Positions 30,667 to 59,779 of a stretch of DNA of 59,779 nucleotides are shown piece by piece. The position numbers and the translations under genes were made by a program. Numbering within the stretch: the first letter of the stretch is position 1; the number at the start of each line of letters is the position of its first letter. The notes under the pieces are model-generated. The model was given only the letters and a program-made list of their open reading frames with translations. It searched no databases and was not told the DNA's origin. The stretch comes from Patescibacteria group bacterium (GTDB lineage Bacteria > Patescibacteriota > Patescibacteriia > Magasanikbacterales > GWA2-37-8): contig JAQWDH010000006.1 in NCBI GenBank assembly GCA_028705565.1, positions 1 to 59,779 on the forward strand. The letters run 5' to 3'.

Positions 30667-30670
30667 AATT

Positions 30671-36414: not shown

Positions 36415-36415
36415 T

Positions 36416-42311: not shown

Positions 42312-42325
42312 TAGTAATTTGAAAT

Positions 42326-43480: not shown

Positions 43481-43514
43481 AAATTATTTTTTGAAAAAGA
43501 TAAAAATAATATTT

Positions 43515-44828: not shown

Positions 44829-44875
44829 ACAATAATGTTGTTATGAAAGTAAAATAGTGTGTTTGAGTTAAAAAA

Positions 44876-45811
44876 ATGTTTTATATGAGTTTACAAAAAA
44901 GCAATTTTGTATTAGGCACAGTTCAACTTGGAATGAAGTATGGTCTTAATAATAGGCATAATCAGCCAACCCTAGACGAATCGTTCTCTATTTTAGATGC
45001 GGCTTTTGCTGCCGGCATCAACACATTTGATACTGCGTACGCTTATGGCACTGCGGAAGATATACTTGGAGCATGGATTCAAGATAGATCGTTAGCTGAT
45101 AAAATTCGAATCATTTCTAAAATGAAACCGCATGTTTTGAATGATTATCCAGATGGCGCAAAAGCCATTGATGTTATTAAGACAGAATTAAAAAAAACGT
45201 TGAATCGTCTTAATCTTAATTCTATTGATGGTTATTTATTTCATTCGCCTCATTATATTTATTTGCGTCATATGGTGGATGGAATGAAGAAAATTCGCGA
45301 TATTGGCGTAGTAAAAAATATTGGCGTTTCAATTTATAACGAAGCAGAGGCTTTGCAAGCGGTAGAAATGGGAATTGATTATGTGCAAGTGCCTTATAAT
45401 ATTTTTGATCAACGTTTGGATCGGACAGTTTTTTTTGAATTAGCAAAAAAAAATAAAGTAACCGTGTTTGCGCGCAGTCCTTTTTTACAAGGGTTGCTAT
45501 TGATGCGCCCTGAACGCATGCCGAAAAACCTTTTTTATATGCGTCCGCATATGGAACAGTTTATTGAAATTGTTAAAAAATATCATTTGTCGCCAGTGGA
45601 GGCCTCTCTTATATTTGTAAAAGCGCATTGCAGAGCAGATTATATCGTATTTGGCATTGATACACTTTCCCAGTTGAAAAATAATATTGATATAATAAAT
45701 AATTTTTTACCAAATACAGTGAAAGGATTAGTGGAAGAGATAGAAAATTGTTTTAAAGATTTCAATCAAGGAGCTGTTAACCCGAGTCTGTGGAGTAAAA
45801 TAAAATTATGA
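44876..45811 (+). CDS. Aldo/keto reductase family oxidoreductase
   Basis: ...LGTVQLGMKYGLNN..., ...GINTFDTAYAYGTAEDILG..., ...VKNIGVSIYN..., ...VQVPYNIFDQR.... An alternative ATG at 44885 is possible. Confidence 0.8.
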   Translation: MFYMSLQKSNFVLGTVQLGMKYGLNNRHNQPTLDESFSILDAAFAAGINTFDTAYAYGTAEDILGAWIQDRSLADKIRIISKMKPHVLNDYPDGAKAIDVIKTELKKTLNRLNLNSIDGYLFHSPHYIYLRHMVDGMKKIRDIGVVKNIGVSIYNEAEALQAVEMGIDYVQVPYNIFDQRLDRTVFFELAKKNKVTVFARSPFLQGLLLMRPERMPKNLFYMRPHMEQFIEIVKKYHLSPVEASLIFVKAHCRADYIVFGIDTLSQLKNNIDIINNFLPNTVKGLVEEIENCFKDFNQGAVNPSLWSKIKL

Positions 45812-47289
45812 TAGTCTGTATTATACAAGCACGAATGGGGTCAACGCGTTTGCCTGGTAAGGTTTTAAAATTTATTTTAGAAAAGCCGATGCTTTATAGG
45901 CAAATTGAGCGTGTGAAACGCGCGAACACCATTGATAAAATTATTATCGCTACGACAATAAACAAGGAAGATGACATTGTCGCGTCTACGGCTCGTGAAG
46001 CTGGGGTTGATTGCTTTCGAGGTAGTGAAGCTGATGTTCTGGACCGTTATTATCATGCGGCAAAATTGGCTAAAGCCGACATTATTGTTCGTTTGACAGG
46101 AGACTGTCCGCTCTCCGACCCGGATGTTATTGATGAAACTGTTGGATATTTTTTAAAATATGCAAAAGACTTAGATTATGCTTCAAAACCGGTTAATTAT
46201 CCTGAAGGACTTGACGTGGAGGTTTTTACTTTTACCGCGCTTGAACGTTCTTGGAAAGATGGAAAAAAAATATCAGAGCGAGAACATGTAACACCTTTTA
46301 TATATACACATCCGGAAATTTTTAGAATTGGGGTGGCGCAACAAAGCGGTGGAAAAGATTATTCAAAGATGCACTGGTCAGTTGACACTGCGGAAGATTT
46401 TGTTTTTGTTACAAATATATTTGAAGCGTTGTACCGTAAAAATCCATTTTTTTCTAAGGATGATATAATTAAATTTTTAAAAAATCATCCAGAATTACTA
46501 TTTATTAATAAAGGAGGGACTGGATACGAGGGGTATAAAAAATCTTTAAAGGAAGATAAGGTTTTTCAGAATAAAAGTTTTATTTATCAAAAAATTATTG
46601 GTTTTATTCCCGAGGTGATTTTTATTATTTCCGGCGGGACTGTAAAAGATGTTAAAAAAAATGGTTTGATAACTTACCGTTCAACAAGAAAAAACGAGGG
46701 TGATTTTTTTGGCACACTTTGGGGTGAAGCGCGAGTTATCGCAACGGCGGAACTTGCGTTGTTTTTTCCAAAAACGGAGATAAAAATTGTGGCCACAAAT
46801 TTTTCTATAAATAACGAACCAACGCAAGCAGAAATCATACGGAATGAACTTGAAAAACTTTCTGTTTCTCGCAGTCGTATTACTGTGTTAGGGAAAAAAT
46901 CAAAAAATACAGCTTCCCAAATATGTGAGTGTTTAAAAATTATCTACAATGAAAAATGGCGCAAGGCAGTGATAGTTACAAATGTATATCATATAGATAG
47001 AGTTTCTGCGATATATTCTCATTTGGATAGAATTTCAACCATAAGCAGAGAAGCGAAAAAAAATGCTAAATTTTTATCTTCCGAGGCTTCTATTTTTTTT
47101 ATTGGGGCTGAATTGATATTACCTTTTCGTGACAAAAAATATAAAACAATAATTAAACGAGTACAGGCAACGCACGCTTACAAAAGGAGAATTAAAAACG
47201 AAAAGCAGGGTGTGGCAATGATTTTGAATGGAGAATACGGTAAATTGTTCATTAAGAAAGATAAAAAAAAGGAAAGAAAACTCCAGTGA
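45808..47289 (+). CDS. Fusion protein: SpsF/PseF-like cytidylyltransferase domain + C-terminal DUF218 (YdcF/ElyC-like) domain
   Basis: The N-terminus MIVCIIQARMGSTRLPGKVLKFILEKPMLYRQIERV...IVRLTGDCPLSDP is the acylneuraminate/SpsF cytidylyltransferase signature. The C-terminal ~230 aa (...VIFIISGG..., ...NTASQICECLKII..KWRKAVIVTNVYHIDRV...) resemble DUF218. Confidence 0.75.
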   Translation: MIVCIIQARMGSTRLPGKVLKFILEKPMLYRQIERVKRANTIDKIIIATTINKEDDIVASTAREAGVDCFRGSEADVLDRYYHAAKLAKADIIVRLTGDCPLSDPDVIDETVGYFLKYAKDLDYASKPVNYPEGLDVEVFTFTALERSWKDGKKISEREHVTPFIYTHPEIFRIGVAQQSGGKDYSKMHWSVDTAEDFVFVTNIFEALYRKNPFFSKDDIIKFLKNHPELLFINKGGTGYEGYKKSLKEDKVFQNKSFIYQKIIGFIPEVIFIISGGTVKDVKKNGLITYRSTRKNEGDFFGTLWGEARVIATAELALFFPKTEIKIVATNFSINNEPTQAEIIRNELEKLSVSRSRITVLGKKSKNTASQICECLKIIYNEKWRKAVIVTNVYHIDRVSAIYSHLDRISTISREAKKNAKFLSSEASIFFIGAELILPFRDKKYKTIIKRVQATHAYKRRIKNEKQGVAMILNGEYGKLFIKKDKKKERKLQ

Positions 47290-47300
47290 ATTCATGGTAG

Positions 47301-47330
47301 TTTTTTTGCCTTGCATATTTTTTTGCCTTG
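47301..47330 (+). repeat. 13-nt direct repeat TTTTTTTGCCTTG x2 in the intergenic region upstream of the NeuB-family gene
   Basis: 47301-47313 and 47318-47330 are identical on direct reading. Confidence 0.7.
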
Positions 47331-47339
47331 TATTATTAT
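47311..47339 (+). promoter_or_regulatory. Candidate internal sigma70-type promoter
   Basis: TTGCAT (47311-47316), a 17-nt spacer, then TATTAT (47334-47339). It lies only ~10 nt from the ATG at 47350, so the transcript would be nearly leaderless. Confidence 0.3.
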
Positions 47340-47349
47340 AAAGTAATAT

Positions 47350-48480
47350 ATGCGAAAAGAACGAAAAAATTTTTTTAAAAGTTTGGCAAAGCATCTGACC
47401 TACGAAACAGTAAAGGAAGTCAAAATAGGTAGTAGGTTTATAGGTGAGAATCACCCGGTTTTTATTATTGCCGAAGTAAGCGCAAATCATCGTGGTAAAA
47501 TTAATAATGCTTTGCGAGCGATAGAGTTTGCAGCTGAAGCTGGGGCGGATGCGATAAAATTTCAGCATTTGACTCACGATAAAATTGCCGCCGATACATT
47601 TGTTTATGATAACAACGAAGACAAGCCAATAGGAACAATGTCTGGCTTATATAAAACCGCCGAGTTGCCTTATGAGTGGACGAATACTTTAGTCGCGCAC
47701 GCTAAAAAAAATAATATTACTTTTTTATCAACCCCATTTGATAAGGGCGCAGTGGATTTACTTGATAGGGCGGGGGTGCCAGCATTTAAGATTGCTTCCT
47801 ACGAATTAACCGACGATATATTTCTTCGTTATGTTGCTAAAAAAGGTAAACCAATTATTATTTCAACCGGAATGGCTTATCTGGAAGAGGTGGCGCATGC
47901 AGTACGAATAATACAAGAGGAAGGTAATAATCAAATTATCATTTTGCATTGTATTTCAATCTACCCGCCGAAAAGTTTTAAAGATTTAAATTTGCGCGCC
48001 ATTAAAACACTGCAAGAATCTTTTCAGCTTCCAGTTGGTTATTCTGACCATTCTACGCCGCCTTATTTATCGGCGCCTATTACAGCGGTTGCTTTAGGCG
48101 CCTGTATTATTGAAAAGCATCTGACTGACAATCGCGATGGCGGTAGTAACGATGATCGTAATTCATTGACTTTTGGCGAGTTCAAGCGTATGGTAGAGGA
48201 AATTCGTCGCACCGAGCAATCTCTTTCAGAGTGCGGCATTAAGCAGCCGGTAGTTTATTCTAAACACATAGGAGATGAAATAGCTGACCGTTGGGCTCGT
48301 CGTTCGCTTTATGCTGCCAAAGATATTCCAGCAGGCGCAATTATAACTGAAAATGCGATAATAACTCTTAGGCCGTTTGGTGGCATTGATCCAAAGGACT
48401 TTCAAATTATAAAAGGAAGAAAAACACAGCGCGCAATCAATGCTCGTTCACCTATTACTTTTGATGATTTTTTTACATAA
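47350..48480 (+). CDS. NeuB-family nonulosonic acid synthase (N-acetylneuraminate/pseudaminate/legionaminate synthase type) with C-terminal SAF domain
   Basis: IGENHPVFIIAEVSANHRGKINNALRAIEFAAEAGADAIKFQ, PAFKIASYELTD, KPIIISTGMA, ILHCISIYP, VGYSDHS, IIEKHLT. The C-terminus ...LYAAKDIPAGAIITENAIITLRP... is SAF-like. Confidence 0.85.
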   Translation: MRKERKNFFKSLAKHLTYETVKEVKIGSRFIGENHPVFIIAEVSANHRGKINNALRAIEFAAEAGADAIKFQHLTHDKIAADTFVYDNNEDKPIGTMSGLYKTAELPYEWTNTLVAHAKKNNITFLSTPFDKGAVDLLDRAGVPAFKIASYELTDDIFLRYVAKKGKPIIISTGMAYLEEVAHAVRIIQEEGNNQIIILHCISIYPPKSFKDLNLRAIKTLQESFQLPVGYSDHSTPPYLSAPITAVALGACIIEKHLTDNRDGGSNDDRNSLTFGEFKRMVEEIRRTEQSLSECGIKQPVVYSKHIGDEIADRWARRSLYAAKDIPAGAIITENAIITLRPFGGIDPKDFQIIKGRKTQRAINARSPITFDDFFT

Positions 48481-48541
48481 TCATAAATTAGATGTATTTT
48501 TTATAAAATTAATTAAATTAATTTAATTTAAATAAGAAAAT

Positions 48542-49768
48542 ATGAAATATTGCAAAAAATGTGTCAATCCGGAAAATGTTTATGAAATGAATGATTTTGA
48601 TGAAAATGGGGTATGCGGTATGTGCAGAAATTGGAAGAATTATGATGAAGTTTTCGCAGCCGAACAAAAAAATAAAGAAAAAAGATTCATTGAAATTTTA
48701 GAAAGATACCGCAGCAAAGATGGCAGTAATTATGATATGATAATTCCCGTTAGCGGCGGAAAGGATAGTTTATATCAGGTTCATTTATTGAAAAAAGTGT
48801 ATGGTTTTAATCCTCTTTTGGTTACTTTTAATCATACATTTAATACAAAAACGGGCATTTACAACATGACCAATATGGTGGAAAAACTAGGCGTGGATCA
48901 TATTAGATTTACTCCTAATCCACAGCTTATCTCTAAAACTTCAAGGCTTTCCTTAAAGAAATTTGGTGATATTTGCTGGCATTGCCATTGTGGTATTTTT
49001 ACCTTTCCTTTAAGAATAGCCGTGGCTTTTAAAATTCCTTTGCTTATTTCCGAACACAAATATTATGGTTTGCTTTCCGCGGATGAAGAAAATAAATTTC
49101 AACCCAATCTTAAAGACAGATTATTTGCTGTCCGCGCCGAGGCTAAAGATATGGTTGATAAGGAATTAGGAATTGAATTAAAAGATCTCGTTCAATGGCA
49201 AATGCCTTCGCAAGAAGAAATTGATAAAGTTGGTGTCCGCGGTTTGAGTATCGCCGAATATATAAAATGGGATTCTAAGGTGATAACGGAATTTCTTATT
49301 AAAGAATATGGATTTAAAACTAAAGAACACGATAGAACTTATGATTGTTACGCCAATGCCGAATGCCATCATTGCAGCGGTACGCATGATTATTTAAGAT
49401 ATTTGAAATCAGGCTATGGCAGAGTAACCGATGATGTAGGTATAGATATAAGAAAAGGATTAATGACCAGGGAAGAAGGTATAAAAATGGTTGAAAAATT
49501 TGATGGTGTTAAGCCAAAAGATTTAGACATATATTTAAAGCGGGTAAACATGACTGAAGAAGAATTTATGAAATATATGGAAGATAAGCGCGAAGAATCC
49601 GTATGGTTCAAAGACAGCGATGGTCAGTGGCAAATTAAAGATTCAGTTTCTAGACACAAGAATGATCAAGGTGTGGAAAAAGTAATATCACCCTTGAGTA
49701 GAGTGGACAGTTATAAAAGAATCAGCAACCCGCTTGATGACGAAATAGAAAAACATATTATAATGTAA
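48542..49768 (+). CDS. N-acetyl sugar amidotransferase (PseA/WbpG/WbuX family PP-loop ATPase)
   Basis: N-terminal zinc ribbon MKYCKKCVNPEN...DENGVCGMCRNW, then PP-loop IIPVSGGKDSLYQVHLLKKVYGFNPLLVTF. This matches the family linked to acetamidino formation on amino sugars. Confidence 0.8.
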   Translation: MKYCKKCVNPENVYEMNDFDENGVCGMCRNWKNYDEVFAAEQKNKEKRFIEILERYRSKDGSNYDMIIPVSGGKDSLYQVHLLKKVYGFNPLLVTFNHTFNTKTGIYNMTNMVEKLGVDHIRFTPNPQLISKTSRLSLKKFGDICWHCHCGIFTFPLRIAVAFKIPLLISEHKYYGLLSADEENKFQPNLKDRLFAVRAEAKDMVDKELGIELKDLVQWQMPSQEEIDKVGVRGLSIAEYIKWDSKVITEFLIKEYGFKTKEHDRTYDCYANAECHHCSGTHDYLRYLKSGYGRVTDDVGIDIRKGLMTREEGIKMVEKFDGVKPKDLDIYLKRVNMTEEEFMKYMEDKREESVWFKDSDGQWQIKDSVSRHKNDQGVEKVISPLSRVDSYKRISNPLDDEIEKHIIM

Positions 49769-49785
49769 TGGAGATTGTCAAAGCG

Positions 49786-49856
49786 CGGCTTATCCGATAT
49801 TCCGTTTCCTTTTCATTTTAAATATGAGAACGAAGGAATTTTGGGTAAGCCGTTTT
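49786..49856 (+). terminator. Long imperfect hairpin followed by TTTT (candidate intrinsic terminator or RNA element)
   Basis: CGGCTTATCCGATATTCC (49786-49803) pairs with GGAATTTTGGGTAAGCCG (49835-49852) at 17 of 18 positions (15 Watson-Crick, 2 G-T, 1 mismatch) around a ~30-nt loop, and TTTT follows at 49853-49856. It sits in the largest intergenic gap of the locus (127 nt). Confidence 0.45.
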
Positions 49857-49895
49857 CAGTGTTATCAATTTTTAAAAAAATAATCATGTCAAATT

Positions 49896-50885
49896 ATGAA
49901 AGAAACTGACATTAGAGATGATAAATACGCTGAAAAAATCAAATATTACGCCACTGAAGATAAAAAAGTACTAATGAAACACGAGAAAGATTTTGTTAAA
50001 GTCTCTTGTCCGGCTTGCGGAAAATTAGACGCAAATTTTGCCTTTATAAAATTAAGAATTCAGTATTTAGAATGTAATAACTGTAGAACTATTTATGCCA
50101 GTCCGCGCCCGACACAGGAGATATTAAAAGAGTATTACCAAAAATCAAAAAATTATCAATTTTGGAATAAATACGTTTTTCCAACTTCTGAAAAAGCGCG
50201 GCGGGAAAAAATATTCAAACCTCGAGTTGATTTGTTAATAAAATATTGCAAGCTTTCTGGTATTAAATCAGGAACACTTATTGAAGTGGGGGCGGGTTTT
50301 GGGACTTTTTGCGAAGAGGTTAAAAGTAGAAATTTTTTTAAGCGAGTAATAGGAATTGAGCCAATTCCTGATTTGGCTGAAAGTTGTCGCAAAAAAGGTA
50401 TTGAAATCATTGAAAAACCAGTTGAGGAGGTGAAGTTAAAAAGTATCAAAGCTGATGTCATTGCGTCTTTTGAAACATTAGAACATCTTTTTAACCCCAG
50501 GGATTTTATCTTATCTTGCAGCAAGCTTTTAAAAAAGGGAGGATTGCTTGTTTTGTCTTGTCCAAATATGTTTGGATTTGACACTTTAGTCCTGAGGGAA
50601 ATGTCAAAAAGCGTGGGAGGGGAGCATATTAATATGTTTAATCCAGAATCAATAAAGATATTAATGCAGGATTGCGGTTTGGTAGCGCTTGATGTAAAAA
50701 CTCCGGGAAAATTAGACGCAGAACTGGTACACAAGGCCATCATAATAGATAATTTTAATATGGATGATCAATATTTTTTAAAGCATCTTTTAGTTGATCG
50801 TTGGGATGATATGGGAGATAAATTTCAGAAATTTTTATCAGACAATTTGTTATCTTCCCACATGTTCTCGGTGGCAAAAAAATAA
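49896..50885 (+). CDS. Class I SAM-dependent methyltransferase with N-terminal Cys4 zinc-ribbon
   Basis: CPACGK...x...CNNCRTIYASPRP, then motif I LIEVGAGFGTF and ...VIASFETLEHLFNPRDFI..LLKKGGLLVLSCPN.... Confidence 0.75.
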   Translation: MKETDIRDDKYAEKIKYYATEDKKVLMKHEKDFVKVSCPACGKLDANFAFIKLRIQYLECNNCRTIYASPRPTQEILKEYYQKSKNYQFWNKYVFPTSEKARREKIFKPRVDLLIKYCKLSGIKSGTLIEVGAGFGTFCEEVKSRNFFKRVIGIEPIPDLAESCRKKGIEIIEKPVEEVKLKSIKADVIASFETLEHLFNPRDFILSCSKLLKKGGLLVLSCPNMFGFDTLVLREMSKSVGGEHINMFNPESIKILMQDCGLVALDVKTPGKLDAELVHKAIIIDNFNMDDQYFLKHLLVDRWDDMGDKFQKFLSDNLLSSHMFSVAKK

Positions 50886-50888
50886 ATT

Positions 50889-51818
50889 ATGATTAAATTA
50901 TTATTTTTAGGGTGTAATTTTGACCAACTGCCATATTTAAAAATTGCTAAACAGAAGGGCTATTATATTGTTGGCACAGATTTAAACAACCATGCCCCTG
51001 GAATTAAATATTTAGATAAATACTATCGGGTTGGTTATGAAGACGCGAAAGGGTTGGTTGATTTTGGCAAAAAAGAAAAATTTTCATATGCTGATAAAGT
51101 TTTTACAGCTTCCAGCCAGTTTGCTTACATCGGAGCCAGCGCTTTCGCAAAAAAATTTGGAATTAAATTTATCAGCCCAAAGACAGTTGATTATTGTTTA
51201 AACAAGATTAAACTTTATCAATTATTTAAAAAGCAAAACTTGCAAGTTCCGGAATGGGCAATAGTTAAGAGGCAAAAAGAGCTGAAAAAATATGTTAAAA
51301 AGTGGGGTGTTTGTTATCTTAAATCTGATTATGGCAAGTCTCCACATTACTGTTATAGAATTGCAGGCGGTCATTTTCCCACATTGCCCTTAAAACGCGA
51401 TCGTTATTTTAGAAAATATTTTATTATTCAAAAAGAAATTATAGGTAATCAGTTCAGAATTAATTGGATAAACGGACAATTGATTTGTTTTTTTAAAGTT
51501 TCCGATACCATATCCGTGCCCGCTCATTTTATCGATTTTGGCGATAGAATATGTAAAAACATTAGAAGTTTAATTTTTAAATTAGGCTTACAGAATCATT
51601 TGGTTAAATTTGATATTATTTATAATAAGCAAGGGTGTTATTTTATAGACATTGGTTTAGAACCGCCGATGAGACTAAAATTATATTTGGAATATTTAGG
51701 TTATAATTTTGAAAAAATATATTTGGAACAAGTTGTAGAAAATTTTTACAATTTTCCACTGTCGGATAATCTTCCAAATGATTTAATAATAAAGAATAAA
51801 ATTGTTAAAAAATTATAA
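50889..51818 (+). CDS. ATP-grasp domain protein (putative carboxylate-amine ligase)
   Basis: Pre-ATP-grasp Rossmann-like N-terminus (IKLLFLGCNFDQLPYLKIAKQKGYYIVGTD), and central ...WGVCYLKSDYGKSP... and ...FIIQKEIIGNQFRINW... strands typical of ATP-grasp. Confidence 0.55.
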   Translation: MIKLLFLGCNFDQLPYLKIAKQKGYYIVGTDLNNHAPGIKYLDKYYRVGYEDAKGLVDFGKKEKFSYADKVFTASSQFAYIGASAFAKKFGIKFISPKTVDYCLNKIKLYQLFKKQNLQVPEWAIVKRQKELKKYVKKWGVCYLKSDYGKSPHYCYRIAGGHFPTLPLKRDRYFRKYFIIQKEIIGNQFRINWINGQLICFFKVSDTISVPAHFIDFGDRICKNIRSLIFKLGLQNHLVKFDIIYNKQGCYFIDIGLEPPMRLKLYLEYLGYNFEKIYLEQVVENFYNFPLSDNLPNDLIIKNKIVKKL

Positions 51819-51829
51819 AAAATTTTAGA

Positions 51830-52876
51830 ATGAATTTAATTATTATAAATTCTGGTCAAAAATTTTTTTTGAAGAATTGTCTAAACAGTTTAATAAATAC
51901 CACTAACTTGGTAAATTTTGATATTCATGTAATAAAAGAAAGAGAATACAGAGAAGTAACTTTTAATACCATTTTAGAAGGATATACTAGTCAAGATATT
52001 TTAATTTTCGGTGATGATATTGTTTTTACAAAAGGTTGGTTTGAATTTTTGATGGCAAATAAAAAAAATGGTGACATTATTGGTTTTTCCATGCTTTATC
52101 CAGGGACGGATAAAGTTCAAGATACTGGTTATGATTTAGTAAAAATTGATAACGAAATTATTTTAAAACCTAAAAACAGGGGAAAAAAGAAAGAAAAAAT
52201 AAAAAAGTTTAATTTTAGAGAATGCGATTCTTCAAGCGGCTGCGCATTGTTTATAAAAAAGAATGTGGCAGAAAAGATTCGTTCCATGCCAGTTAACGGT
52301 ATGAACCGCTGGGGAGAGTTTTTATACATGAATGAAGCTAAAAAGAAAGGATTTAAGGTCATAGTTCTTGGCCATTATTTATACCATCATGGTAAGAGTA
52401 CTAAAATTAACCCGAATAAATTATTGAGCTCGGAAAGTTATATGTTGGAACAAAAAATGTGGAGGAAAATTGTAAAACAATATATTAACAAAGAACAAAT
52501 CAAAATTCAATTAAAGAAAGTTTTGTCAAAAAAAATCAGGAGCATACTATTATCAAAAAAGAAAATTTTATTTTATGGAGCAGGCACAGTATCGGAATTT
52601 ATTTTAAAAGAATTAAAAAGCGAGTTAGATTTAAGGTTTGTTGATATTTGTTCCGGGTTGTCTGAAGAAAAAGAAAAGATTTTTTGCGGAAAAAAAATCA
52701 GTTTCTATAAAAATGTTGATTTTGGCAATTATGATATAGTAATAGTTAGCGTTTTACAAAAAGAAAAAGTAATTTTTGATTTAATCAAAAATTTTATTGA
52801 TAAAAAAAAGTTATATTATGTGGCTCAAGAAACAATAGGTTGTTTAATAAAATTTGGAATAAAACAATATGCATAA
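51830..52876 (+). CDS. Hypothetical protein, weak GT2-like N-terminal domain plus C-terminal Rossmann-like segment
   Basis: MNLIIINSGQKFFLKNCLNSLINTT..., ...ILIFGDDIVFTKGWF... (DXD-like) and ...GCALFIKKNV.... The C-terminus reads ...KKILFYGAGTVSEFILKEL.... Assignment is tentative. Confidence 0.35.
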   Translation: MNLIIINSGQKFFLKNCLNSLINTTNLVNFDIHVIKEREYREVTFNTILEGYTSQDILIFGDDIVFTKGWFEFLMANKKNGDIIGFSMLYPGTDKVQDTGYDLVKIDNEIILKPKNRGKKKEKIKKFNFRECDSSSGCALFIKKNVAEKIRSMPVNGMNRWGEFLYMNEAKKKGFKVIVLGHYLYHHGKSTKINPNKLLSSESYMLEQKMWRKIVKQYINKEQIKIQLKKVLSKKIRSILLSKKKILFYGAGTVSEFILKELKSELDLRFVDICSGLSEEKEKIFCGKKISFYKNVDFGNYDIVIVSVLQKEKVIFDLIKNFIDKKKLYYVAQETIGCLIKFGIKQYA

Positions 52877-53846
52877 TTATGTTATTGTTGTTGGCGGCGG
52901 AAAAGACAGCGTTTTTGTTATAGATAAAATTCATAGAATGGGGTTAAAAGCGATTGTTGTTGATAAAAACCCAGTCGTTCCTGGTATGATTTGCGCTGAT
53001 GAAAAAATTGTTTCCAGCACTTATGAAAGCGAACCAATCATAAAAAAACTGAAAAAGTTCATAGCAAGCGGAAAAAAGATAGTTGCCATAGTAACAAGGT
53101 CGTCTGGAATCCCGGTTATAACTACAGCAAAGATAGCCGACGCTTTGAATTTGTTCGGTGCCGGTGAAGACGCCGCAAGAGTACTCACATATAAAAATTT
53201 ATTTACTGATTTATGTTATGATAACGGTATACCCACCGCCAGAATTAAAATGTCAGATTTTAAAAAAAGAAATAAATATCTAACACGTTATTTTCCTTGC
53301 GTGATAAAGCCTGCGTTGGGATTAGCTGGAAAAGTTGACGTTAGGATGATAACAAAAGATTTAAAAATTGGTTCAGTTATAACTGCTGTCAAAAAAAAAT
53401 CTCTAAACGGGAAGATTTTGATAGAAAGATATATCCCAGGCATAGATATAAGTTTATTTTCAGTTGTGTTTAATGGTGTCTTATGCCCATGCTTTTTTTT
53501 GAGAGAGCTAAACAAGTTTGACAAAGAAGGAAAAATTAAATTTAAAGGTTTTTGTTTTTGTAGTAAGTTAAAGAATATTGAAAAGAAAAGGATGATTAAA
53601 ATAGCGCAAAAAGTTGTCAAAGTAGCCGATGTTGGATTCAGTCCGTTTCTTATATCTTTTAGATTAACTAAAGAAGGGCTGGCGGTTCCGATTGAAGTTA
53701 ATCTAGATTTTGGAGGAGAAAATGTTTTAGAAGAGTTGATTTTTTCGAGAATTGATTTTGATTTTATTGAATGTTATTTAGAATCCATAATCCATAAAGC
53801 CAAGCCTGATATTCCTAAAATTTTTTATAAAAATTTTAGGAATTAA
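52869..53846 (+). CDS. ATP-grasp domain protein
   Basis: VIVVGGGKDSVFVIDKIHRMGLKAIVVDKNP (pre-ATP-grasp), ...FPCVIKPALGLAGKVDVRMI..., ...ILIERYIPGIDISLFSV.... 8-nt overlap with the upstream gene. Confidence 0.55.
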   Translation: MHNYVIVVGGGKDSVFVIDKIHRMGLKAIVVDKNPVVPGMICADEKIVSSTYESEPIIKKLKKFIASGKKIVAIVTRSSGIPVITTAKIADALNLFGAGEDAARVLTYKNLFTDLCYDNGIPTARIKMSDFKKRNKYLTRYFPCVIKPALGLAGKVDVRMITKDLKIGSVITAVKKKSLNGKILIERYIPGIDISLFSVVFNGVLCPCFFLRELNKFDKEGKIKFKGFCFCSKLKNIEKKRMIKIAQKVVKVADVGFSPFLISFRLTKEGLAVPIEVNLDFGGENVLEELIFSRIDFDFIECYLESIIHKAKPDIPKIFYKNFRN

Positions 53847-53859
53847 GAATAAAAATATT

Positions 53860-54789
53860 ATGAAAAAAGAATCTTTAAATACAATAAAAAAAATATATGA
53901 AAGAGGTGAAAATATAATCCGTTACCTCAAAGACAATGAAATTAAAAAAAATAATTCAGACGAGATGATAATGATTAGTTATGATTTCCAAAGCGGAAGC
54001 TATGTAAAAGATGTAAAAGAAAATTTTGAATTTAATGAAAAATATACCAGAGCTATTTCAAAAGTGATTAATAATATAGGCGTAGAGTACGACTCTATAC
54101 TTGAGGCCGGAGTTGGTGAAGCAACAACTTTGGCAAATTTAATCCCAAAATTAGCAACTAAACCTAAAAATGTGTATGGTTTTGATTTGGCTTGGTCCAG
54201 AATTAGGTTTGCAAAAGAATATATAGAAGAAAAAAAAATTTTGGGTTCGCATATTTTTGTTGGTAATCTTTTTAATATCCCATTAGCCGATAGCTCAATT
54301 GATGTTGTTTACACATCGCATTCCATAGAACCTAATGGCGGTAGAGAAAAAGAAGCCCTGCTAGAATTATTTAGAGTCTCAAAAAAATATTTAGTACTGA
54401 TAGAACCTGCGTATGAATTCGCAAGTATGGAAGCGCAGAAAAGAATGGAAAGGCACGGTTATATAAAGAATCTGTATTCCACGGCCGTTTCCATCGGATT
54501 AAATATAGTAGAGCATAGTTTATTTGACGTATGTTCAAACCATCTTAACCCAACAGGAATTTTGATAATTAAAAAAGAGTTTAATGATAATAGGATTGTT
54601 TCAAATCCGTTTATTTGTCCAGTTACAAAAACCACCTTGGAATTAATAAAAAATTCATATTTTACAAAAGATGGTTTATTAGTGTATCCAATTATTGACG
54701 GAGTCCCCATCTTGCTAAAAGAGCACGCTGTCGTCGCTACACATTTTACAGATGATTTTAAAATTATTAATAGAGATAACGATTGTTAA
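53860..54789 (+). CDS. Class I SAM-dependent methyltransferase with C-terminal Trm112-like zinc-ribbon-type tail
   Basis: Motif I ILEAGVGEATTL, and ...IDVVYTSHSIEPNGG.... The C-terminal ...FICPVTKTTLELIKNSYFTKDGLLVYPIIDGVPILLKE resembles the Trm112/UPF0434 fold. Confidence 0.7.
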   Translation: MKKESLNTIKKIYERGENIIRYLKDNEIKKNNSDEMIMISYDFQSGSYVKDVKENFEFNEKYTRAISKVINNIGVEYDSILEAGVGEATTLANLIPKLATKPKNVYGFDLAWSRIRFAKEYIEEKKILGSHIFVGNLFNIPLADSSIDVVYTSHSIEPNGGREKEALLELFRVSKKYLVLIEPAYEFASMEAQKRMERHGYIKNLYSTAVSIGLNIVEHSLFDVCSNHLNPTGILIIKKEFNDNRIVSNPFICPVTKTTLELIKNSYFTKDGLLVYPIIDGVPILLKEHAVVATHFTDDFKIINRDNDC

Positions 54790-54857
54790 AACATACTAAA
54801 TAAATATCAAGATTAATAAAATTTTTTATAAGGACAATAACTAATAATTTAAAAAAT

Positions 54858-56591
54858 ATGAATCACAAATCAAAAAAATCTTTACCTTTACATAAAAAAA
54901 TGAAGCTTACAGATTATATTGTAGAATTTTTAGCAACACACGGCGTAGAATGCATGTTTGTTTTTACAGGAGGCGCAATAGCGCACTTTTTAGATTCTGT
55001 ATTTACTCGCAATCTTCAACATGGCGACATAAAACCTGTTTGCGTAATGCATGAACAGGCTGGGTCAATGGCGCTTGATGGTTATACGCGCGCCACGGGA
55101 AAAATTGGCGCTATGGCTGTTACCAGCGGTCCAGGCGCTACTAATTTATTAACAGGTATCGCTTGTTCTTATTATGACTCAATTCCGGGAATATATTTTA
55201 CAGGGCAGGTTAGAACTTGGGAACTCTGCCAAAGTAAACAGCGGCAGATTGGTTTTCAGGAAACAGATATTGTAAGTATCGCCAAACCCATAACTAAATA
55301 CGCAGTTACAATTACTGACCCGGCTACTGTTCGTTATGAGATAGAGAAAGCCTTATTTTTAGCCCAATCAGGCCGCCCCGGTCCGGTTTTAATTGATTTG
55401 CCGATGAATATACAATGGGCTGAAATAGATCCAAGCAAATTAAAATCTTATAAACCAGAACAAAAACCGCCGGAGAGCCACGAAAGAATTAACAAAAAGA
55501 TAGATCTTTTGGTTAAATGGCTTCAGCAATCTAAACGGCCAATAATTATTGGCGGTGGCGGAGTACGGAATGCCGGAGCAACCAATGAACTGCTTAATTT
55601 AGCTAGATTAAGCCGCATACCGGTGGCTGTAACTTTTAATGGAGTTGATACTATTGTTCATGATAATCCTCTTTATTCCGGAGTGATAGGCACCATGGGA
55701 AATCGCGGAACAAATACTTCTATCAAAGAAAGCGATTTAGTTTTGGCGATTGGCACCCGCTTATCTTTGCGTCAGGTAAAGTCAAAACCAAAAGAATTTG
55801 TTTCTCAAGGAAAATTAATTCATGTTGATATTGATCCTAATGAATTGAATCAACTCGTACCGACTGATTTATCTTTTGCTTGCGATGCTAAAGAATTTTT
55901 AATTCTTTTGATAAATAGAATCAAAAAGGCAGGCTGTCCAAAGTTTTCGAATTGGGCAAAACAAACACGAAAAAATTTTGAAGATAATCCTTTTTGCAAG
56001 CCAGAGTACTATTCGCAGAAAAAAGGCGTAAACCCATATGTTTTTATGAATACTATTTCCGAGCAGATGGACGATGATGATATTTTAATTGCCGATGCCG
56101 GTCAAAATGTTATGTGGGCTATGCAAGCGGTTGAGGTTAGGGCAAAACAGAGGCTTTTTACTGCCGGAGCGCATTCCCCAATGGGTTATTCGCTTCCCGC
56201 AGCAATTGGAGTGGCGGCGTATTGCAAGGATTCTCGCCATGTTATTTGTACGATAGGCGATGGCGGTGTTCAATTAAATATTCAGGAGTTGCAAACAATT
56301 TTTTCATATAAATTGCCGGTAAAAATTTTTGTGATGAATAATCATTCTTACGGCGCGATTGTAGATTTTCAGGATGCTAATCTTGGGAAGCGCCATTTTG
56401 CCTCTTCTACAAAATATGGTTATACGATTCCGGACTTGTTGGCTATCGCTCGCGCTTATAAAATTCCGGCGATGGAAATTAATTCACAGCGCGGATTGGC
56501 AAAAAAAATAAAATCGGTTCTTAACAGTAAAGGGCCAATTTTTTGCAATGTAGACATGGGGTCGCGAACATATGTTACGTTGGATGTTTAA
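54858..56591 (+). CDS. Thiamine diphosphate-dependent enzyme, acetolactate synthase large subunit-like (possible YerE-type sugar branching enzyme)
   Basis: LTDYIVEFLATHGVECMFVFTGGA, HEQAGSMALDGYTRATGK.GAMAVTSGPGATNLLTGIA (Pyr domain), and IGDGGVQLNIQELQT...MNN (ThDP GDG-X-NN motif). Confidence 0.85.
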   Translation: MNHKSKKSLPLHKKMKLTDYIVEFLATHGVECMFVFTGGAIAHFLDSVFTRNLQHGDIKPVCVMHEQAGSMALDGYTRATGKIGAMAVTSGPGATNLLTGIACSYYDSIPGIYFTGQVRTWELCQSKQRQIGFQETDIVSIAKPITKYAVTITDPATVRYEIEKALFLAQSGRPGPVLIDLPMNIQWAEIDPSKLKSYKPEQKPPESHERINKKIDLLVKWLQQSKRPIIIGGGGVRNAGATNELLNLARLSRIPVAVTFNGVDTIVHDNPLYSGVIGTMGNRGTNTSIKESDLVLAIGTRLSLRQVKSKPKEFVSQGKLIHVDIDPNELNQLVPTDLSFACDAKEFLILLINRIKKAGCPKFSNWAKQTRKNFEDNPFCKPEYYSQKKGVNPYVFMNTISEQMDDDDILIADAGQNVMWAMQAVEVRAKQRLFTAGAHSPMGYSLPAAIGVAAYCKDSRHVICTIGDGGVQLNIQELQTIFSYKLPVKIFVMNNHSYGAIVDFQDANLGKRHFASSTKYGYTIPDLLAIARAYKIPAMEINSQRGLAKKIKSVLNSKGPIFCNVDMGSRTYVTLDV

Positions 56592-56624
56592 AGAATTGTT
56601 TAAAAGTTTTTTAGAAAAGTATAT

Positions 56625-57380
56625 ATGTTTAAGAAAAATATGACTAAGAACGCTATAATTACAGGAGGGAGCAGGGGCATAGGAAAAGCGATTGCTTTAG
56701 CCATGGCTAAAGCTGGCGTGAATGTAGTTTTGACATATCAAAAAAATAAATCAAAAGCTCTTGCTGTAGTAAAAGAAATAGAAAAAAGCGGGCACAAAGC
56801 AATGTGTGTAAAATTAAATCAAAAAAACAGAGAGGATATCCGCAGAGTTATCAGGGACGCTCGTAAAAGATTTGGCGAGATTAATATCTTGGTAAATAAT
56901 GCCGCTGTTGCTCAAAAAAAACCATTGGAAATGATAAACGATAAAGATTGGGACAATGTGTTGGCGATTAATTTGCGAGGGCCGTTTATTTTTTGTCAGG
57001 AGATATTGCCTTATATGAAAAAACAAGGTTGGGGTAGAATTGTAAACATAAGTTCAATTGGCGGACAGTGGGGAGGTATGAATCAAATTCATTATGCCGC
57101 GGCAAAAGCAGGTTTAATCAATTTAACCAAGTCCGTGGCAAAACTTTATTCAAAATATGGCATTACAAGTAACGCCGTTGCCCCCGGTTTGGTAGCAACA
57201 GACATGACAACGCGCGCATTAAAAATAGATATTAAAAAAATAAAATTTGAACATATACCAATAGGTCGAATTGCGATTCCTGAAGAGATAGCAGGCGTTG
57301 TCGCTTTTTTGTGTTCAGAAGAAGCGTCTTATATAACTGGGCAAACTATAAACATAAATGGCGGCATGCTATTTAATTAA
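56625..57380 (+). CDS. Short-chain dehydrogenase/reductase, FabG-like
   Basis: AIITGGSRGIGKAIA, NNAAV, YAAAKAG (YxxxK), NAVAPGLVATDM, ITGQTININGG. Confidence 0.85.
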   Translation: MFKKNMTKNAIITGGSRGIGKAIALAMAKAGVNVVLTYQKNKSKALAVVKEIEKSGHKAMCVKLNQKNREDIRRVIRDARKRFGEINILVNNAAVAQKKPLEMINDKDWDNVLAINLRGPFIFCQEILPYMKKQGWGRIVNISSIGGQWGGMNQIHYAAAKAGLINLTKSVAKLYSKYGITSNAVAPGLVATDMTTRALKIDIKKIKFEHIPIGRIAIPEEIAGVVAFLCSEEASYITGQTININGGMLFN

Positions 57381-57388
57381 AAAACAAT

Positions 57389-58600
57389 ATGCGTGAAAAT
57401 ATTTTAGAACGTGATTCCTACTTAATCGTGCTTGGAGCGGGGTCTCAACAAGTTTCTGCTTATAAAACAGCGTCTCGACTAGGTTTGAAAACTTTAGCCA
57501 TTGATTATAATCCAAAGGCCAAAGCAAGAGATTTGGCTGATAAATTTTTATTAGCAAGCATAAAAGATAAAGTAGAATGTATATCTAAACTTAAAAAATT
57601 AAATCTTCATTATTCAGGAGTTACTACCATTGGCGTTGAGGTTTCTCCTGTAGTAAGCGCCATTGCTAAAGAATTTAATTTATCAAGCGTTTCTGAAACA
57701 GTCGCCTTTAATACGACCAATAAATGCGCTCGAGCAACGGTGCTGCAAAAAGCAGGAATACCGGCGCCAAAGTTTGAAATTATCAATGAGCGTTCTTTGC
57801 CAAAAATTATTAATTATCCGCTTATCATAAAACCGTCAGACAATTCCGGCTCTAGGGGTGTTAGGATTGTAGAATCTGAAAAGGAATGGTTTGAAGCATA
57901 CGACGATGCCAAATCTATTTCCGGTGATGGCAAAGTCATTGTAGAGGAGTTGCTACAAGGTGATGAAATATCAATTGAAGGGTTTGTTCTTGACGGAAAA
58001 ATGATTATTGTCGGTTTTTCTGATAGAAATTATATTTCTAGTTATCATCCATATTTTATGGAAGATGGCAGCAGCAGTCCAACCAACCTGCCGCATTCTG
58101 TAATAGTTGAAGCAGAAAAAGTTTTTGCGAAAGCGGCTTATTCCTTAGGTGTTACGGAAGGTCCTTCAAAGGGAGATCTTATTGTTACCAAGGAAGGAGT
58201 TAAAGTATTGGAAATTACATCTCGTCTTAGCCCGGGATTTTCTTTGTTACTTCCGCACACAGAAGGCACGGATCCGCTTGAAGCGACAATACGTTGGGCC
58301 GTTAACATGCATATTCCACAATCTTTGCTTCAGCCCAAATTTCACAAAGCCATGGCGCATCGTTTCTTTTTTCATCAGCCCGGTAAAGTTACAAAAATAA
58401 CAGGACTTGAAAATTTAAAAAAACAACCAGGAGTTATAGAGGTTATTTTTTTACGAGATTTTACAATCGGCGACATATTAGAACCACCCAATAACATTAA
58501 TCGTCTTTTCTATATTTATACAGTGGCCGATAATCGTGATACGGCTATCAGATTGGCCGAGGAAGCATTAAGTACGGTGAACATACAAGTTGATAAATAA
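57389..58600 (+). CDS. ATP-grasp domain protein (carboxylate-amine ligase type)
   Basis: YLIVLGAGSQQVSAYKTASRLGLKTLAIDYNP, YPLIIKPSDNSGSRGVRIV, VIVEELLQGDEISIEGFVLDGKM, GPSKGDLIVTKEGVKVLEITSRLS. Confidence 0.75.
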   Translation: MRENILERDSYLIVLGAGSQQVSAYKTASRLGLKTLAIDYNPKAKARDLADKFLLASIKDKVECISKLKKLNLHYSGVTTIGVEVSPVVSAIAKEFNLSSVSETVAFNTTNKCARATVLQKAGIPAPKFEIINERSLPKIINYPLIIKPSDNSGSRGVRIVESEKEWFEAYDDAKSISGDGKVIVEELLQGDEISIEGFVLDGKMIIVGFSDRNYISSYHPYFMEDGSSSPTNLPHSVIVEAEKVFAKAAYSLGVTEGPSKGDLIVTKEGVKVLEITSRLSPGFSLLLPHTEGTDPLEATIRWAVNMHIPQSLLQPKFHKAMAHRFFFHQPGKVTKITGLENLKKQPGVIEVIFLRDFTIGDILEPPNNINRLFYIYTVADNRDTAIRLAEEALSTVNIQVDK

Positions 58601-58601
58601 T

Positions 58602-59660
58602 ATGAGGTTTCTTTTTATTTATCCTAATTCCTGTAAATTCGGGACATTCCATATAGGAATTGGTATCCTCTCTTCCATTTTAAAAAAATATGGGCATGTA
58701 GTGGATCTATTTGACACTACTTTTATACCCGAGGGTTGCGAAGAATATGAATTTGAAAAAAAAGTAATTGAATTCAAACCCGACATGTTGGGTTTTTCTG
58801 TCAAGACTGTTGATTGTCTTTTAGCAGAAAAACTTTACGATAGAGTGGCTAAAATGAATATTCCTGCCGTGGTTGGTGGACATCACGCCACGTTAGAGCC
58901 AGAGAGTACGGCTAAAAAATTTGGGATGGTCCTTCGGGGTGAGTGTGAAATTGCCTTGCCTTTGCTCTTGGATAAATTTAGTAAAGGAGAATCAGTTTTG
59001 GATACACCTAATTTGTATTTGAAGAAAGGGGACATATTTATTAAAAATGATTTAGCGCCTCTTTTTGAGAATCTTGATGAATTGCCGTTTCCCGATTGGA
59101 AATTATTTGATAAAAGAAATTATTTTGAAAGCCCTTACTTAGATAGCGCCTTAGAGGGTTCAAAATGTCTTGGTGTTTTTGAAAAATCTCGTGGGTGTTT
59201 CTTCAGCTGTTCTTTTTGTTCTATACCAAAAGAAAGAGAAATATATGAAGGCAAGGGCGAGTGGCATCGTGAAAAGAGCGCTAACCGCCTCGCCGATGAG
59301 ATACTGGCCTTTAAAGAATTATACCCGCTTGATGCTATCCATTTTATTGATGACATTTTTTTGTCACCTGATAAAAATAAAATGGCGGAATTTCGGGATG
59401 TTTTCAAGACAAGAGTTAAAATCCATTTTACTTCAAGCGAGAGAGCCGAAAGAATTGACCCGGATTTGATGCAAATGTTTAAGGACGCCGGCGGGTATCA
59501 GTTGTGGATTGGGATTGAATCCGGCGACGAGGAATTAAGAATTAAAATGTTAAACCGCAGAATGTCCGATGAAACCCTAATTAAAGCATTCCAGATTGCC
59601 AAAGAATGCGGAGTTAAAACCCGGGCCACCTCTATGCTGGGGTTGCCTAACCAGAGTTAA
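58602..59660 (+). CDS. B12-binding-domain radical SAM protein (paralog G), apparently C-terminally truncated
   Basis: VVGGHHATLEPE and SRGCFFSCSFCSI (CX3CX2C). The ORF stops at ...SMLGLPNQS*, where the paralogs read GxPGE(T/N) and continue for a further ~110-140 aa. It is 352 aa against 450-489 aa for the others. The ATG at 58602 is used; the track start is a TTG. Confidence 0.6.
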   Translation: MRFLFIYPNSCKFGTFHIGIGILSSILKKYGHVVDLFDTTFIPEGCEEYEFEKKVIEFKPDMLGFSVKTVDCLLAEKLYDRVAKMNIPAVVGGHHATLEPESTAKKFGMVLRGECEIALPLLLDKFSKGESVLDTPNLYLKKGDIFIKNDLAPLFENLDELPFPDWKLFDKRNYFESPYLDSALEGSKCLGVFEKSRGCFFSCSFCSIPKEREIYEGKGEWHREKSANRLADEILAFKELYPLDAIHFIDDIFLSPDKNKMAEFRDVFKTRVKIHFTSSERAERIDPDLMQMFKDAGGYQLWIGIESGDEELRIKMLNRRMSDETLIKAFQIAKECGVKTRATSMLGLPNQS

Positions 59661-59779
59661 TAGAACTTTTGGTGGGGCTGAAAAGTGCGTTTTGTGGCAT
59701 ACTACAGCTAAAAAACTAACTAATTATTCATATGACCTGTAAAAAAGTGCCCAGAATGTTTAAAACATGCCATTAAAAA

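Follow-up and report, generated by a model that had tools for sequence, protein, structure and literature searches.

Positions 1 to 59,779 of contig JAQWDH010000006.1 (assembly GCA_028705565.1), from a Patescibacteria group bacterium, were analysed. This whole stretch, referred to below as the window, is a single + strand glycan cluster (59.8 kb, GC 29-38%). Its last part, positions 49896-59660, raises a question: what is made by a block that combines three ATP-grasp ligases with a thiamine diphosphate (ThDP)-dependent enzyme and a short-chain dehydrogenase/reductase (SDR), and on which acceptor does the ThDP enzyme act? A first-pass annotation had predicted branched and amide-decorated acidic sugars. 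The analysis described here indicates that the block, which recurs beside pseudaminic-acid genes in many uncultured bacteria, is probably a tailoring cassette of a pseudaminic-acid-type sugar pathway, decorating a surface sugar by chemistry not yet described. On flagella, capsules and S-layers, nonulosonic acids influence motility and recognition by phages and the immune system, and they vary chiefly in their side groups.

A tightly packed nine-gene block

The folds, domains, catalytic motifs, family placement and gene linkage of the block were established in this analysis. Its nine open reading frames (ORFs) have the coordinates claimed in the first-pass annotation, and all lie on the + strand with intergenic gaps of -10 to 68 nt:

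49896..50885, + strand: S-adenosylmethionine (SAM) methyltransferase 1 (MT1) with an N-terminal Cys4 zinc ribbon (Methyltransf_23, 62 bits; CPAC...CNNC)
50889..51818, + strand: ATP-grasp 1, of a small family of about 300 aa (weak hidden Markov model matches only; AlphaFold2 (AF2) and Foldseek)
51830..52876, + strand: GT-A fold glycosyltransferase-like protein with a C-terminal Rossmann-like domain (AF2 and Foldseek)
52869..53846, + strand: ATP-grasp 2 (ATP-grasp_4, 25.9 bits; cut-off 27)
53860..54789, + strand: SAM methyltransferase 2 (MT2) with a Trm112-like C-terminal tail, zinc ligands mostly lost (Methyltransf_11, 32 bits)
54858..56591, + strand: ThDP-dependent carboligase of the acetohydroxyacid synthase (AHAS)/YerE superfamily (three TPP domains, PF02776, PF00205 and PF02775, 93-136 bits)
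56625..57380, + strand: FabG-type classical SDR, the reductase partner (adh_short_C2, 219 bits)
57389..58600, + strand: ATP-grasp 3, L-amino-acid-ligase (LAL) type (ATP-grasp_4, 55 bits; LAL_C2, 46.6 bits)
58590..59660, + strand: B12-binding radical SAM (rSAM) paralog G, truncated (B12-binding and Radical_SAM)

The predicted series of three ATP-grasps, methyltransferases, a weak GT2-like protein, the ThDP/SDR pair and rSAM G was thus recovered as tightly packed, co-directional genes. The nine-gene block at 49896-59660 is real and operon-like, and it is probably a single transcription unit 3′ of pseB-pseC-...-pseI-wbuX. The hairpin reported upstream does exist as an inverted repeat (49786..49852, no strand assigned; 18-nt arms, 83% complementary) inside the 127-nt gap before the block, but a terminator scan did not score it as a terminator.

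Phylogenetic placement of the ThDP enzyme

The ThDP enzyme retains the motifs expected of a working catalyst: H65-E66-Q67, with the catalytic Glu, and G467-D468-G469 and N494-N495, which form the GDG...NN diphosphate-binding motif, are invariant in 25 homologues. It scored 419 bits against the biosynthetic AHAS model TIGR00118, under the cut-off of 538, and 259 bits against the NCBIfam model for 5-guanidino-2-oxopentanoate decarboxylase. Its best PDB matches were 5ahk (310 bits), which we take to be PpYerE, and 8rph (300 bits), with plant AHAS next at 263 bits. The entry 8rph is JanthE, a YerE-like ketone-accepting carboligase (PMC12188165), and a structure of PpYerE exists (PMC8541089, which does not confirm the code 5ahk).

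A plasmid tblastn returned only true ilvB genes, at 32-34% identity, and the plasmid-borne IlvB with ilvN, ilvC and ilvD neighbours are 31-34% identical to the ThDP enzyme; since the identity to PpYerE is no higher than that to some of them, pairwise similarity alone is not decisive. Neighbour-joining (NJ) trees were therefore built from 62 and 65 sequences, with 200 and 300 bootstraps, using Escherichia coli IlvB, IlvI, Gcl and PoxB as references and, in the second tree, three further IlvB, giving five true AHAS. The split between AHAS, Gcl and PoxB on one side and PpYerE, JanthE and the window family on the other was kept in 100% of bootstraps, and the subclade of the window enzyme was monophyletic in 99.5-100%. 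The position of PpYerE itself was unstable, with alternatives at 27-41% support. The phylogeny proposed in the first-pass annotation therefore separates the enzyme from housekeeping AHAS, and by this placement it is not a housekeeping acetolactate synthase. Within the window, the ThDP gene is flanked by a methyltransferase gene and the SDR gene, and the block contains no ilvN, ilvC, ilvD, alsD or small subunit.

The comparison with the YerE/YerF pair holds in part. The enzyme lies outside AHAS, on the YerE side, and is accompanied by a reductase; orthology with YerE does not follow, the identity to PpYerE being 33.5% and PpYerE not being a specific sister of the family. On the basis of the sequences, "YerE-like" is best read as a superfamily-level placement. 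The FAD-stabilising positions of JanthE, Y268 and P293, correspond to Met280 and Arg305 in the window enzyme, which is not decisive; the central domain is present (125.6 bits). R305 is nearly invariant among the 25 homologues and presumably corresponds to the acceptor-carboxylate-binding Arg of plant AHAS (R377), a position at which PpYerE has Arg too.

In one homologue of the family, P0167 (969 aa), the ThDP enzyme is fused to Radical_SAM and SPASM domains, which hints at a functional tie of such ThDP enzymes to radical SAM enzymes.

Conservation of the ThDP-SDR-ligase set

A scan of GTDB species representatives with the ThDP enzyme matched at least 578 stretches, the carriers including Patescibacteria, DPANN-type archaea, Elusimicrobiota, Omnitrophota, Pelagibacterales, Paenibacillus and others. 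For the wider family (40-45% identity), neighbours within four genes of the ThDP gene were counted at 83 loci. The commonest were a nucleoside diphosphate (NDP)-sugar 4,6-dehydratase/epimerase (53/83 loci), DegT aminotransferase (36/83), sugar nucleotidyltransferase (26/83), classical SDR (25/83), class I/II aminotransferase (18/83), GT2 (14/83), B12-rSAM (12/83) and zinc-dependent alcohol dehydrogenase (Zn-ADH; 12/83). By analogy, this is the layout of an NDP-deoxysugar pathway and follows the same logic as ddh/yerE/yerF.

The subclade of the window enzyme comprises about 40 clusters at 48% identity or more, and includes members from Neptuniibacter sp. QD48_55, a Pelagibacterales single-amplified genome, Patescibacteria, Candidatus Anammoxibacter and a Piscirickettsiaceae metagenome-assembled genome. 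Six subclade loci were examined; in each, an orthologous FabG-type SDR gene (51-62% identity) and a LAL-type ATP-grasp gene come after the ThDP gene, and four of the six (the window, L002, L003 and L004) also contain NeuB. The 51-62% range holds for the gene directly after the ThDP gene in L002-L006. Both ATP-grasp 1 (42-50%) and a gene resembling ATP-grasp 2 are common to the window, L004 and L005, with L005 being without the GT-A protein; L004 additionally shares the GT-A protein, WbuX (68%), a class III aminotransferase (55%), an aldo-keto reductase (33%) and a cytidylyltransferase (38%).

A second conserved unit is the trio ATP-grasp 1/GT-A protein/ATP-grasp 2, which travels with the ThDP set in L004 and occurs with other types of ThDP enzyme in L097 and L098; in all three loci the GT-A gene adjoins ATP-grasp 1. 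In L098 (13493-15631), where the trio is 60-72% identical, a phosphonopyruvate-decarboxylase-like split ThDP enzyme and an iron-dependent alcohol dehydrogenase (Fe-ADH) replace the AHAS-like enzyme and the SDR, and a second NeuB follows them. In L097 the trio accompanies a different AHAS-like ThDP lineage (31% identity). The ThDP/SDR pair is conserved within sugar clusters of different phyla, and the block recurs near sugar genes in relatives (L002-L006, L091, L097 and L098), where the first-pass annotation had allowed for its absence.

Two further arrangements were seen. In the related cassette of L097, the GT-A homologue and the ThDP gene are separated by an insertion (10353-10830) of a BrnT-toxin-like gene with a small partner ORF. 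L099 (13220-15783) carries a split transketolase, as N and C halves, followed by an SDR 53% identical to that of the window, with a GT-A homologue nearby; the split transketolase is the third kind of ThDP enzyme to be paired with a window-type SDR.

The end of the block was examined with L091, a 96-kb contig that is 98% identical to the window. The window tracks L091 to about 59653 and then diverges, its last ~126 nt (59654-59779) being unmatched; the sequences place a junction at this boundary, an assembly break or an insertion, which cuts rSAM G. The first-pass annotation was correct in placing an rSAM paralog at the end of the block. It is not intact, and its reading as a short but complete paralog was rejected. 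The rSAM ORF of L091 runs for 372 aa and then continues in another frame (frameshifted). Past the point that corresponds to the window end, L091 (18285-21047) extends the block by two genes, for a GH57-like protein of 661 aa and for a class I/II aminotransferase, whose products are 34-49% and 44-52% identical, respectively, to copies in L002, L004 and L005. The best NCBIfam match of the aminotransferases of these last three loci is the guanitoxin GntC model, under its cut-off.

ATP-grasp ligases, methyltransferases and the GT-A protein

The ATP-grasp fold proposed for three proteins is supported in each, by Foldseek for ATP-grasp 1, by BLASTP to ATP-grasp 3 for ATP-grasp 2, and by ATP-grasp_4 and LAL_C2 for ATP-grasp 3. 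An AF2 model of ATP-grasp 1, built from a 41-sequence alignment, reached a pLDDT of 94.2. Foldseek matched this model to PurK, RizA, the L-amino acid ligase BL00235 and PylC (E ~1e-16), with TM up to 0.77, in superposition on RizA. Copies of ATP-grasp 1 in L004, L005 and L098 are 42-66% identical to it, and its family comprises 49 cluster representatives at E<=1e-30 in the representative library. Its best match there, P0217, is a protein of 638 aa that aligned in two stretches, the better being residues 335-629; this small family may have been fused or duplicated in tandem in it.

BLASTP aligned ATP-grasp 2 with ATP-grasp 3 at 27% identity over 201 aa (E 1e-15), and the L098 copy of ATP-grasp 2 is 60% identical to it. 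The PDB matches of ATP-grasp 3 are 4dim and BL00235, and it is 57-63% identical to its counterparts in L004 and L005 and 31-34% to those in L002, L003 and L006. Co-variation of ATP-grasp 3 with the type of ThDP enzyme was considered and rejected: the L003 ThDP enzyme is 68% identical to that of the window, whereas its ligase is only 34% identical.

Two zinc-ribbon methyltransferases had been proposed, and one of them stands as such. MT1 carries CPAC...CNNC, with weak Pfam zinc-ribbon matches at its N-terminus (E 0.003-0.01), and shows only generic methyltransferase similarity to the SfmD-like methyltransferase of L002 (E 0.007). The Trm112-like tail of MT2 aligned in BLASTP with E. coli YcaR, of the Trm112 family (PF03966), at 36% identity across 44 aa (E 3e-6); a Pfam search returned nothing useful for it even at E<=5. 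This tail keeps a single Cys (CPVTK) and is therefore not a Cys4 ribbon, which leaves MT1 as the sole true zinc-ribbon methyltransferase.

The protein at 51830, previously described as weakly GT2-like, had no match in Pfam, GT2 included, and its two halves gave nothing useful at E<=5. Its AF2 model (pLDDT 93.3) has a GT-A glycosyltransferase fold, with Foldseek matches to B4GALNT1, majastridin, ppGalNAcT, WrtF and TarP (E ~1e-7, probability 1.0), and D56, D62 and D63 are invariant, D62-D63 standing for the acidic DxD-type motif. The earlier description was thus correct.

Pseudaminic-acid genes upstream of the block

The genes that immediately precede the block are as follows:

41319..42311, + strand: PseB, UDP-GlcNAc 4,6-dehydratase (inverting) (TIGR03589, 454.6 bits; cut-off 407.75)
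42326..43480, + strand: PseC aminotransferase (TIGR03588, 470.6 bits; cut-off 423.5)
43464..47289, + strand: class III aminotransferase, aldo-keto reductase and cytidylyltransferase-DUF218 fusion (Pfam and NCBIfam; same set in L004)
47350..48480, + strand: NeuB/PseI-like nonulosonic acid synthase (PF03102, 264 bits; TIGR03586 PseI, 321.5 bits, just under the 340.25 cut-off)
48542..49768, + strand: WbuX-type N-acetyl sugar amidotransferase, with predicted acetamidino formation (TIGR03573, 311 bits; cut-off 203; 68% identical to L004)

PseB, whose identity to the L002, L097 and L098 dehydratases is 49-55%, provides a 4-keto sugar and partners the block from its upstream side. The cytidylyltransferase scored only 31 bits against the PseF model. 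Searches of the window ORFs with Pfam and NCBIfam revealed neither PseH (GNAT) nor PseG (GT28-like); L004 has candidates for both, and the two genes could lie elsewhere in the genome. On the claim that nonulosonic acids are made upstream, PseB and PseC pass their cut-offs and PseI is just under. The companion claim of uronic acid synthesis was not confirmed, as Pfam scans of the upstream ORFs detected no UDP-sugar dehydrogenase.

Proposed mechanism and competing explanations

In the mechanism that we propose, the ThDP enzyme would take a 2-oxo acid (by default pyruvate), decarboxylate it so as to leave an acyl-anion equivalent on ThDP, and add this to a carbonyl carbon, giving a tertiary alcohol with a new keto side chain. 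The FabG-type SDR would then reduce the new ketone, as YerF does. The ATP-grasps would form amide bonds by way of carboxylates activated to acyl phosphates, the GT-A protein would add a sugar, and the two methyltransferases would methylate. The donor may be a longer 2-oxo acid from the class I/II aminotransferase found past the window end in L091, which would leave a carboxylate for the ligases. All substrates, and the order of these steps, are what we infer. The earlier prediction of a branched and amide-decorated sugar is supported in part; the acceptor may be a keto-sugar or else a 2-oxo acid destined for an N-acyl side chain.

For the acceptor, we narrowly favour a nucleotide-linked 4-keto-6-deoxy sugar, for example the PseB product, which is the branched-sugar reading of the first-pass annotation, at a probability of roughly 40%, because of the family placement of the ThDP enzyme and the dehydratase and nucleotidyltransferase neighbourhood of its family. 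The sfmABCDE genes of Shewanella oneidensis MR-1 (SO_3261-3265) offer a genetic precedent: their NeuB-like, IlvB-like (ThDP enzyme), FabG-like (SDR), methyltransferase and ATP-grasp products are required for flagellin modification and work alongside PseB and PseC (PMC3765264). The Shewanella flagellin glycan consists of a 274-Da nonulosonic acid, C11H18N2O6, with one acetyl and apparently one basic amine, and a nitrogen-free outer moiety, C9H16O7, with up to two O-methyl groups. Mutants in sfmA-D have unmodified flagellin, and the ATP-grasp mutant retains part of the modification (PMC3765264).

Several observations weigh against this explanation of the block. PseC competes for the same 4-keto sugar, and the formula of the Shewanella nonulosonic core is unbranched (PMC3765264). 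The class I/II aminotransferase and the LAL-type ligase are enzymes of amino acids and small acids, and the replacement enzymes of L098 likewise act on small 2-oxo acids. The ThDP enzyme is 33.5% identical to PpYerE and 34.3% identical to Ilyobacter IlvB, and PpYerE is not the specific sister of its family in the NJ trees. No Shewanella protein was among the best 120 matches of either the window ThDP enzyme or its Neptuniibacter relative. The context of the window is, moreover, polysaccharide-like and not flagellar.

A second explanation, which we regard as possible though somewhat unlikely, moves the same chemistry from the sugar to its side chain. The ThDP enzyme would react as AHAS does, with a 2-oxo acid as acceptor (possibly a 2-keto-3-deoxy sugar acid from a NeuB-type synthase); the SDR would reduce the aceto group of the product and the methyltransferases would O-methylate it, giving a branched di- or polyhydroxy acid whose carboxylate the LAL-type ATP-grasp would couple to the amine of a pseudaminic precursor, replacing the PseH that is absent from the window. 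The constant LAL-type partner in six of six subclade loci fits this scheme, as does a class I/II aminotransferase gene beside the ThDP gene in L002, L004 and L005, downstream in the L091 block and at 18 of the 83 wider loci. So do the failure to find PseH or PseG in the window and the small-molecule decarboxylase and Fe-ADH at the corresponding place in L098. By contrast, the sixteen largest neighbour families of the wider ThDP family (the smallest found at 5 loci) include no ligase or acyltransferase, except the subclade-confined ATP-grasp. The near invariance of R305 would suit a 2-oxo acid acceptor, although PpYerE keeps the same Arg. By our arithmetic, a free acid C9H18O8, such as 2-C-(1-hydroxyethyl)-3-deoxyheptonic acid, would yield the Shewanella C9H16O7 increment; a hydroxyethyl-branched heptose and a 2-C-(1-hydroxyethyl)-3-deoxyheptonoyl group both fit this formula, and the published masses do not discriminate between them. 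A polyhydroxy-acyl nonulosonic acid has a precedent in Treponema denticola (PMC13439194). The Shewanella genetics and mass spectra are less favourable: the ATP-grasp mutant retains part of the modification, whereas the ThDP, SDR and methyltransferase mutants lose all of it, and the outer moiety is easily lost in collision-induced dissociation, with the 274-Da part apparently holding a basic amine, which argues against an amide via that nitrogen.

An Ehrlich-type route appears improbable. Here the aminotransferase would supply a 2-oxo acid, the ThDP enzyme would decarboxylate it to an aldehyde, and the SDR would reduce this to an alcohol or omega-hydroxy acid (for example of the 4-hydroxybutanoyl type) for attachment by the ligases. 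The trio of aminotransferase, ThDP enzyme and reductase in L002, L004, L005 and L091, the decarboxylase and Fe-ADH in the same place in L098, and the 259-bit match to a decarboxylase model in a superfamily that includes simple decarboxylases are all consistent with such a route. However, the ThDP enzyme groups with carboligases and not with known decarboxylases, the window itself contains no class I/II aminotransferase, and a dedicated transaminase is not required for the supply of common 2-oxo acids.

A housekeeping or catabolic acetolactate synthase with an acetoin/butanediol-type dehydrogenase, stray in a glycan cluster, is very improbable: the TIGR00118 score, the SDR score of 195 bits against the meso-2,3-butanediol dehydrogenase model and the 30-34% identity to true IlvB point that way, but both model scores are under their cut-offs, the tree separates the enzyme from the five AHAS in 100% of bootstraps, the block is without a small subunit, alsD or ilvC, and the pair is kept in sugar clusters across phyla, so that an acetoin or ilv pathway was rejected on tree and context.

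Returning to the combination of ThDP enzyme, SDR and LAL-type ATP-grasp as a whole, we tentatively propose that it may be an uncharacterised route to nonulosonic-acid diversity. In this proposal, which is doubtful in its full form, a branched, reduced unit would be built on a keto-sugar or a 2-keto-3-deoxy sugar acid and then fixed or extended by ligases, in up to three ligations, via amide bonds. The product would be a C-branched or a polyhydroxy-acyl/peptidyl derivative of pseudaminic acid that is chemically undescribed.

Other genes of the cluster

The cluster 5′ of the block encodes an ABC-2 permease, a Wzy_C/TPR protein, many GT4 and GT2 glycosyltransferases, two PMT_2 proteins, an AsnB-like amidotransferase and several methyltransferases, together with KdsB, a GT2-ADH fusion and an MsbA/PglK-like exporter. 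Pfam scans revealed no Maf or flagellar genes in the window. Seven B12-binding radical SAM paralogs, six of them 5′ of the block and the seventh rSAM G, and one SPASM radical SAM protein are present:

8285-9772, 11409-12761, 14315-15712, 15745-17214, 25681-27096, 30656-32095 and 58590-59660, + strand: B12-binding radical SAM paralogs
18357-19400, + strand: SPASM radical SAM

At 32121-32897 and 32925-34811, KdsB, which passes equivalog cut-offs, adjoins the GT2-Zn-ADH fusion, an arylformamidase-like cyclase and a D-2-hydroxyacid dehydrogenase; this neighbourhood suggests a second, Kdo-type acidic sugar branch of the cluster. The ORFs at 36386-38044 and 39869-41308, of 552 and 479 aa, gave no match, or at most a weak one to Capsule_synth, in Pfam and NCBIfam.

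Implications

Shewanella sfm is the only genetic handle on a cassette of ThDP enzyme, reductase and ATP-grasp, and its chemistry has been unsolved since 2013. To this the present analysis adds that the ThDP partner belongs to a distinct, widespread family on the YerE side, that a LAL-type ligase accompanies it without exception among its closest relatives (six of six loci examined), and that a second conserved trio of ATP-grasp, GT-A protein and ATP-grasp travels with the cassette. The chemistry can now be approached through specific enzymes and through carriers in culture, Neptuniibacter sp. QD48_55 among them. If sugar branching is indeed the reaction, the wider ThDP family, with its at least 578 stretches, many in Patescibacteria and DPANN-type archaea, would be a large untapped set of sugar-branching enzymes. 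YerE-like enzymes are wanted as biocatalysts for chiral tertiary alcohols (PMC12188165).

Comparison with known systems

Compared with YerE/YerF and with PpYerE and JanthE, the window pair shares a ThDP superfamily branch with a reductase after it, and the wider family lies near NDP-sugar 4,6-dehydratases and nucleotidyltransferases. On the other side, identity is limited to 32-34%, the window enzyme is no specific sister of PpYerE, ddh (CDP-3,6-dideoxyhexose) genes are lacking, the reductase belongs to the FabG-type classical SDRs, and the pair is tied to ATP-grasps and pseudaminic-acid genes. With the AHAS enzymes IlvB and IlvI, the window enzyme shares the three-domain ThDP fold, the catalytic Glu, GDG...NN and ~30-34% identity; it differs in scoring under the equivalog cut-off, in having neither a small subunit nor ilv neighbours, and in the tree split at 100%.

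The ligases recall the L-amino acid ligases RizA and BL00235 and PylC, in that ATP-grasp 3 has LAL_C2 and matches BL00235 and ATP-grasp 1 superposes on RizA, but sequence identity is 13-19%, and the substrates of the block ligases are probably sugar-linked amines or acids, not two free amino acids. An ATP-grasp_4 protein within a glycan locus is also known from Clostridium difficile, where CDR20291_0245 is required for an amide-linked amino-sugar substituent of the type B flagellin peptidylamido-glycan (PMC5207246); this likeness is by description, and in that locus the sugar is not a nonulosonic acid and there is no ThDP enzyme.

The first-pass annotation had found no described glycan to match the block, which overlooks Shewanella sfmABCDE (PMC3765264) and the N-(methoxy-trihydroxyhexanoyl) nonulosonic acid of T. 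denticola (PMC13439194). The T. denticola flagellin glycan carries a 2-methoxy-4,5,6-trihydroxyhexanoyl nonulosonic acid (PMC13439194), so that pseudaminic-type sugars can bear O-methylated polyhydroxy-acyl groups, the type of product expected of an acid built for the side chain; this parallel concerns the product. The closest architectural parallel is sfm. Within 41319-58600 the window has the same gene content (a NeuB-like synthase, ThDP enzyme, FabG-type SDR, methyltransferase and ATP-grasp, with PseB and PseC), and Neptuniibacter L002 repeats the sfm gene order beside FliS and Maf. In contrast to sfm, the window has three ATP-grasps, a GT-A protein, two different methyltransferases and a B12-rSAM, and it is a Wzy/ABC-exporter polysaccharide cluster (Wzy_C, PMT_2 and many GT4/GT2) and not a flagellar island. 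The tie to sfm is one of architecture, drawn by analogy of gene content; the cassette is a variant of a known but chemically unsolved type of nonulosonic-acid tailoring.

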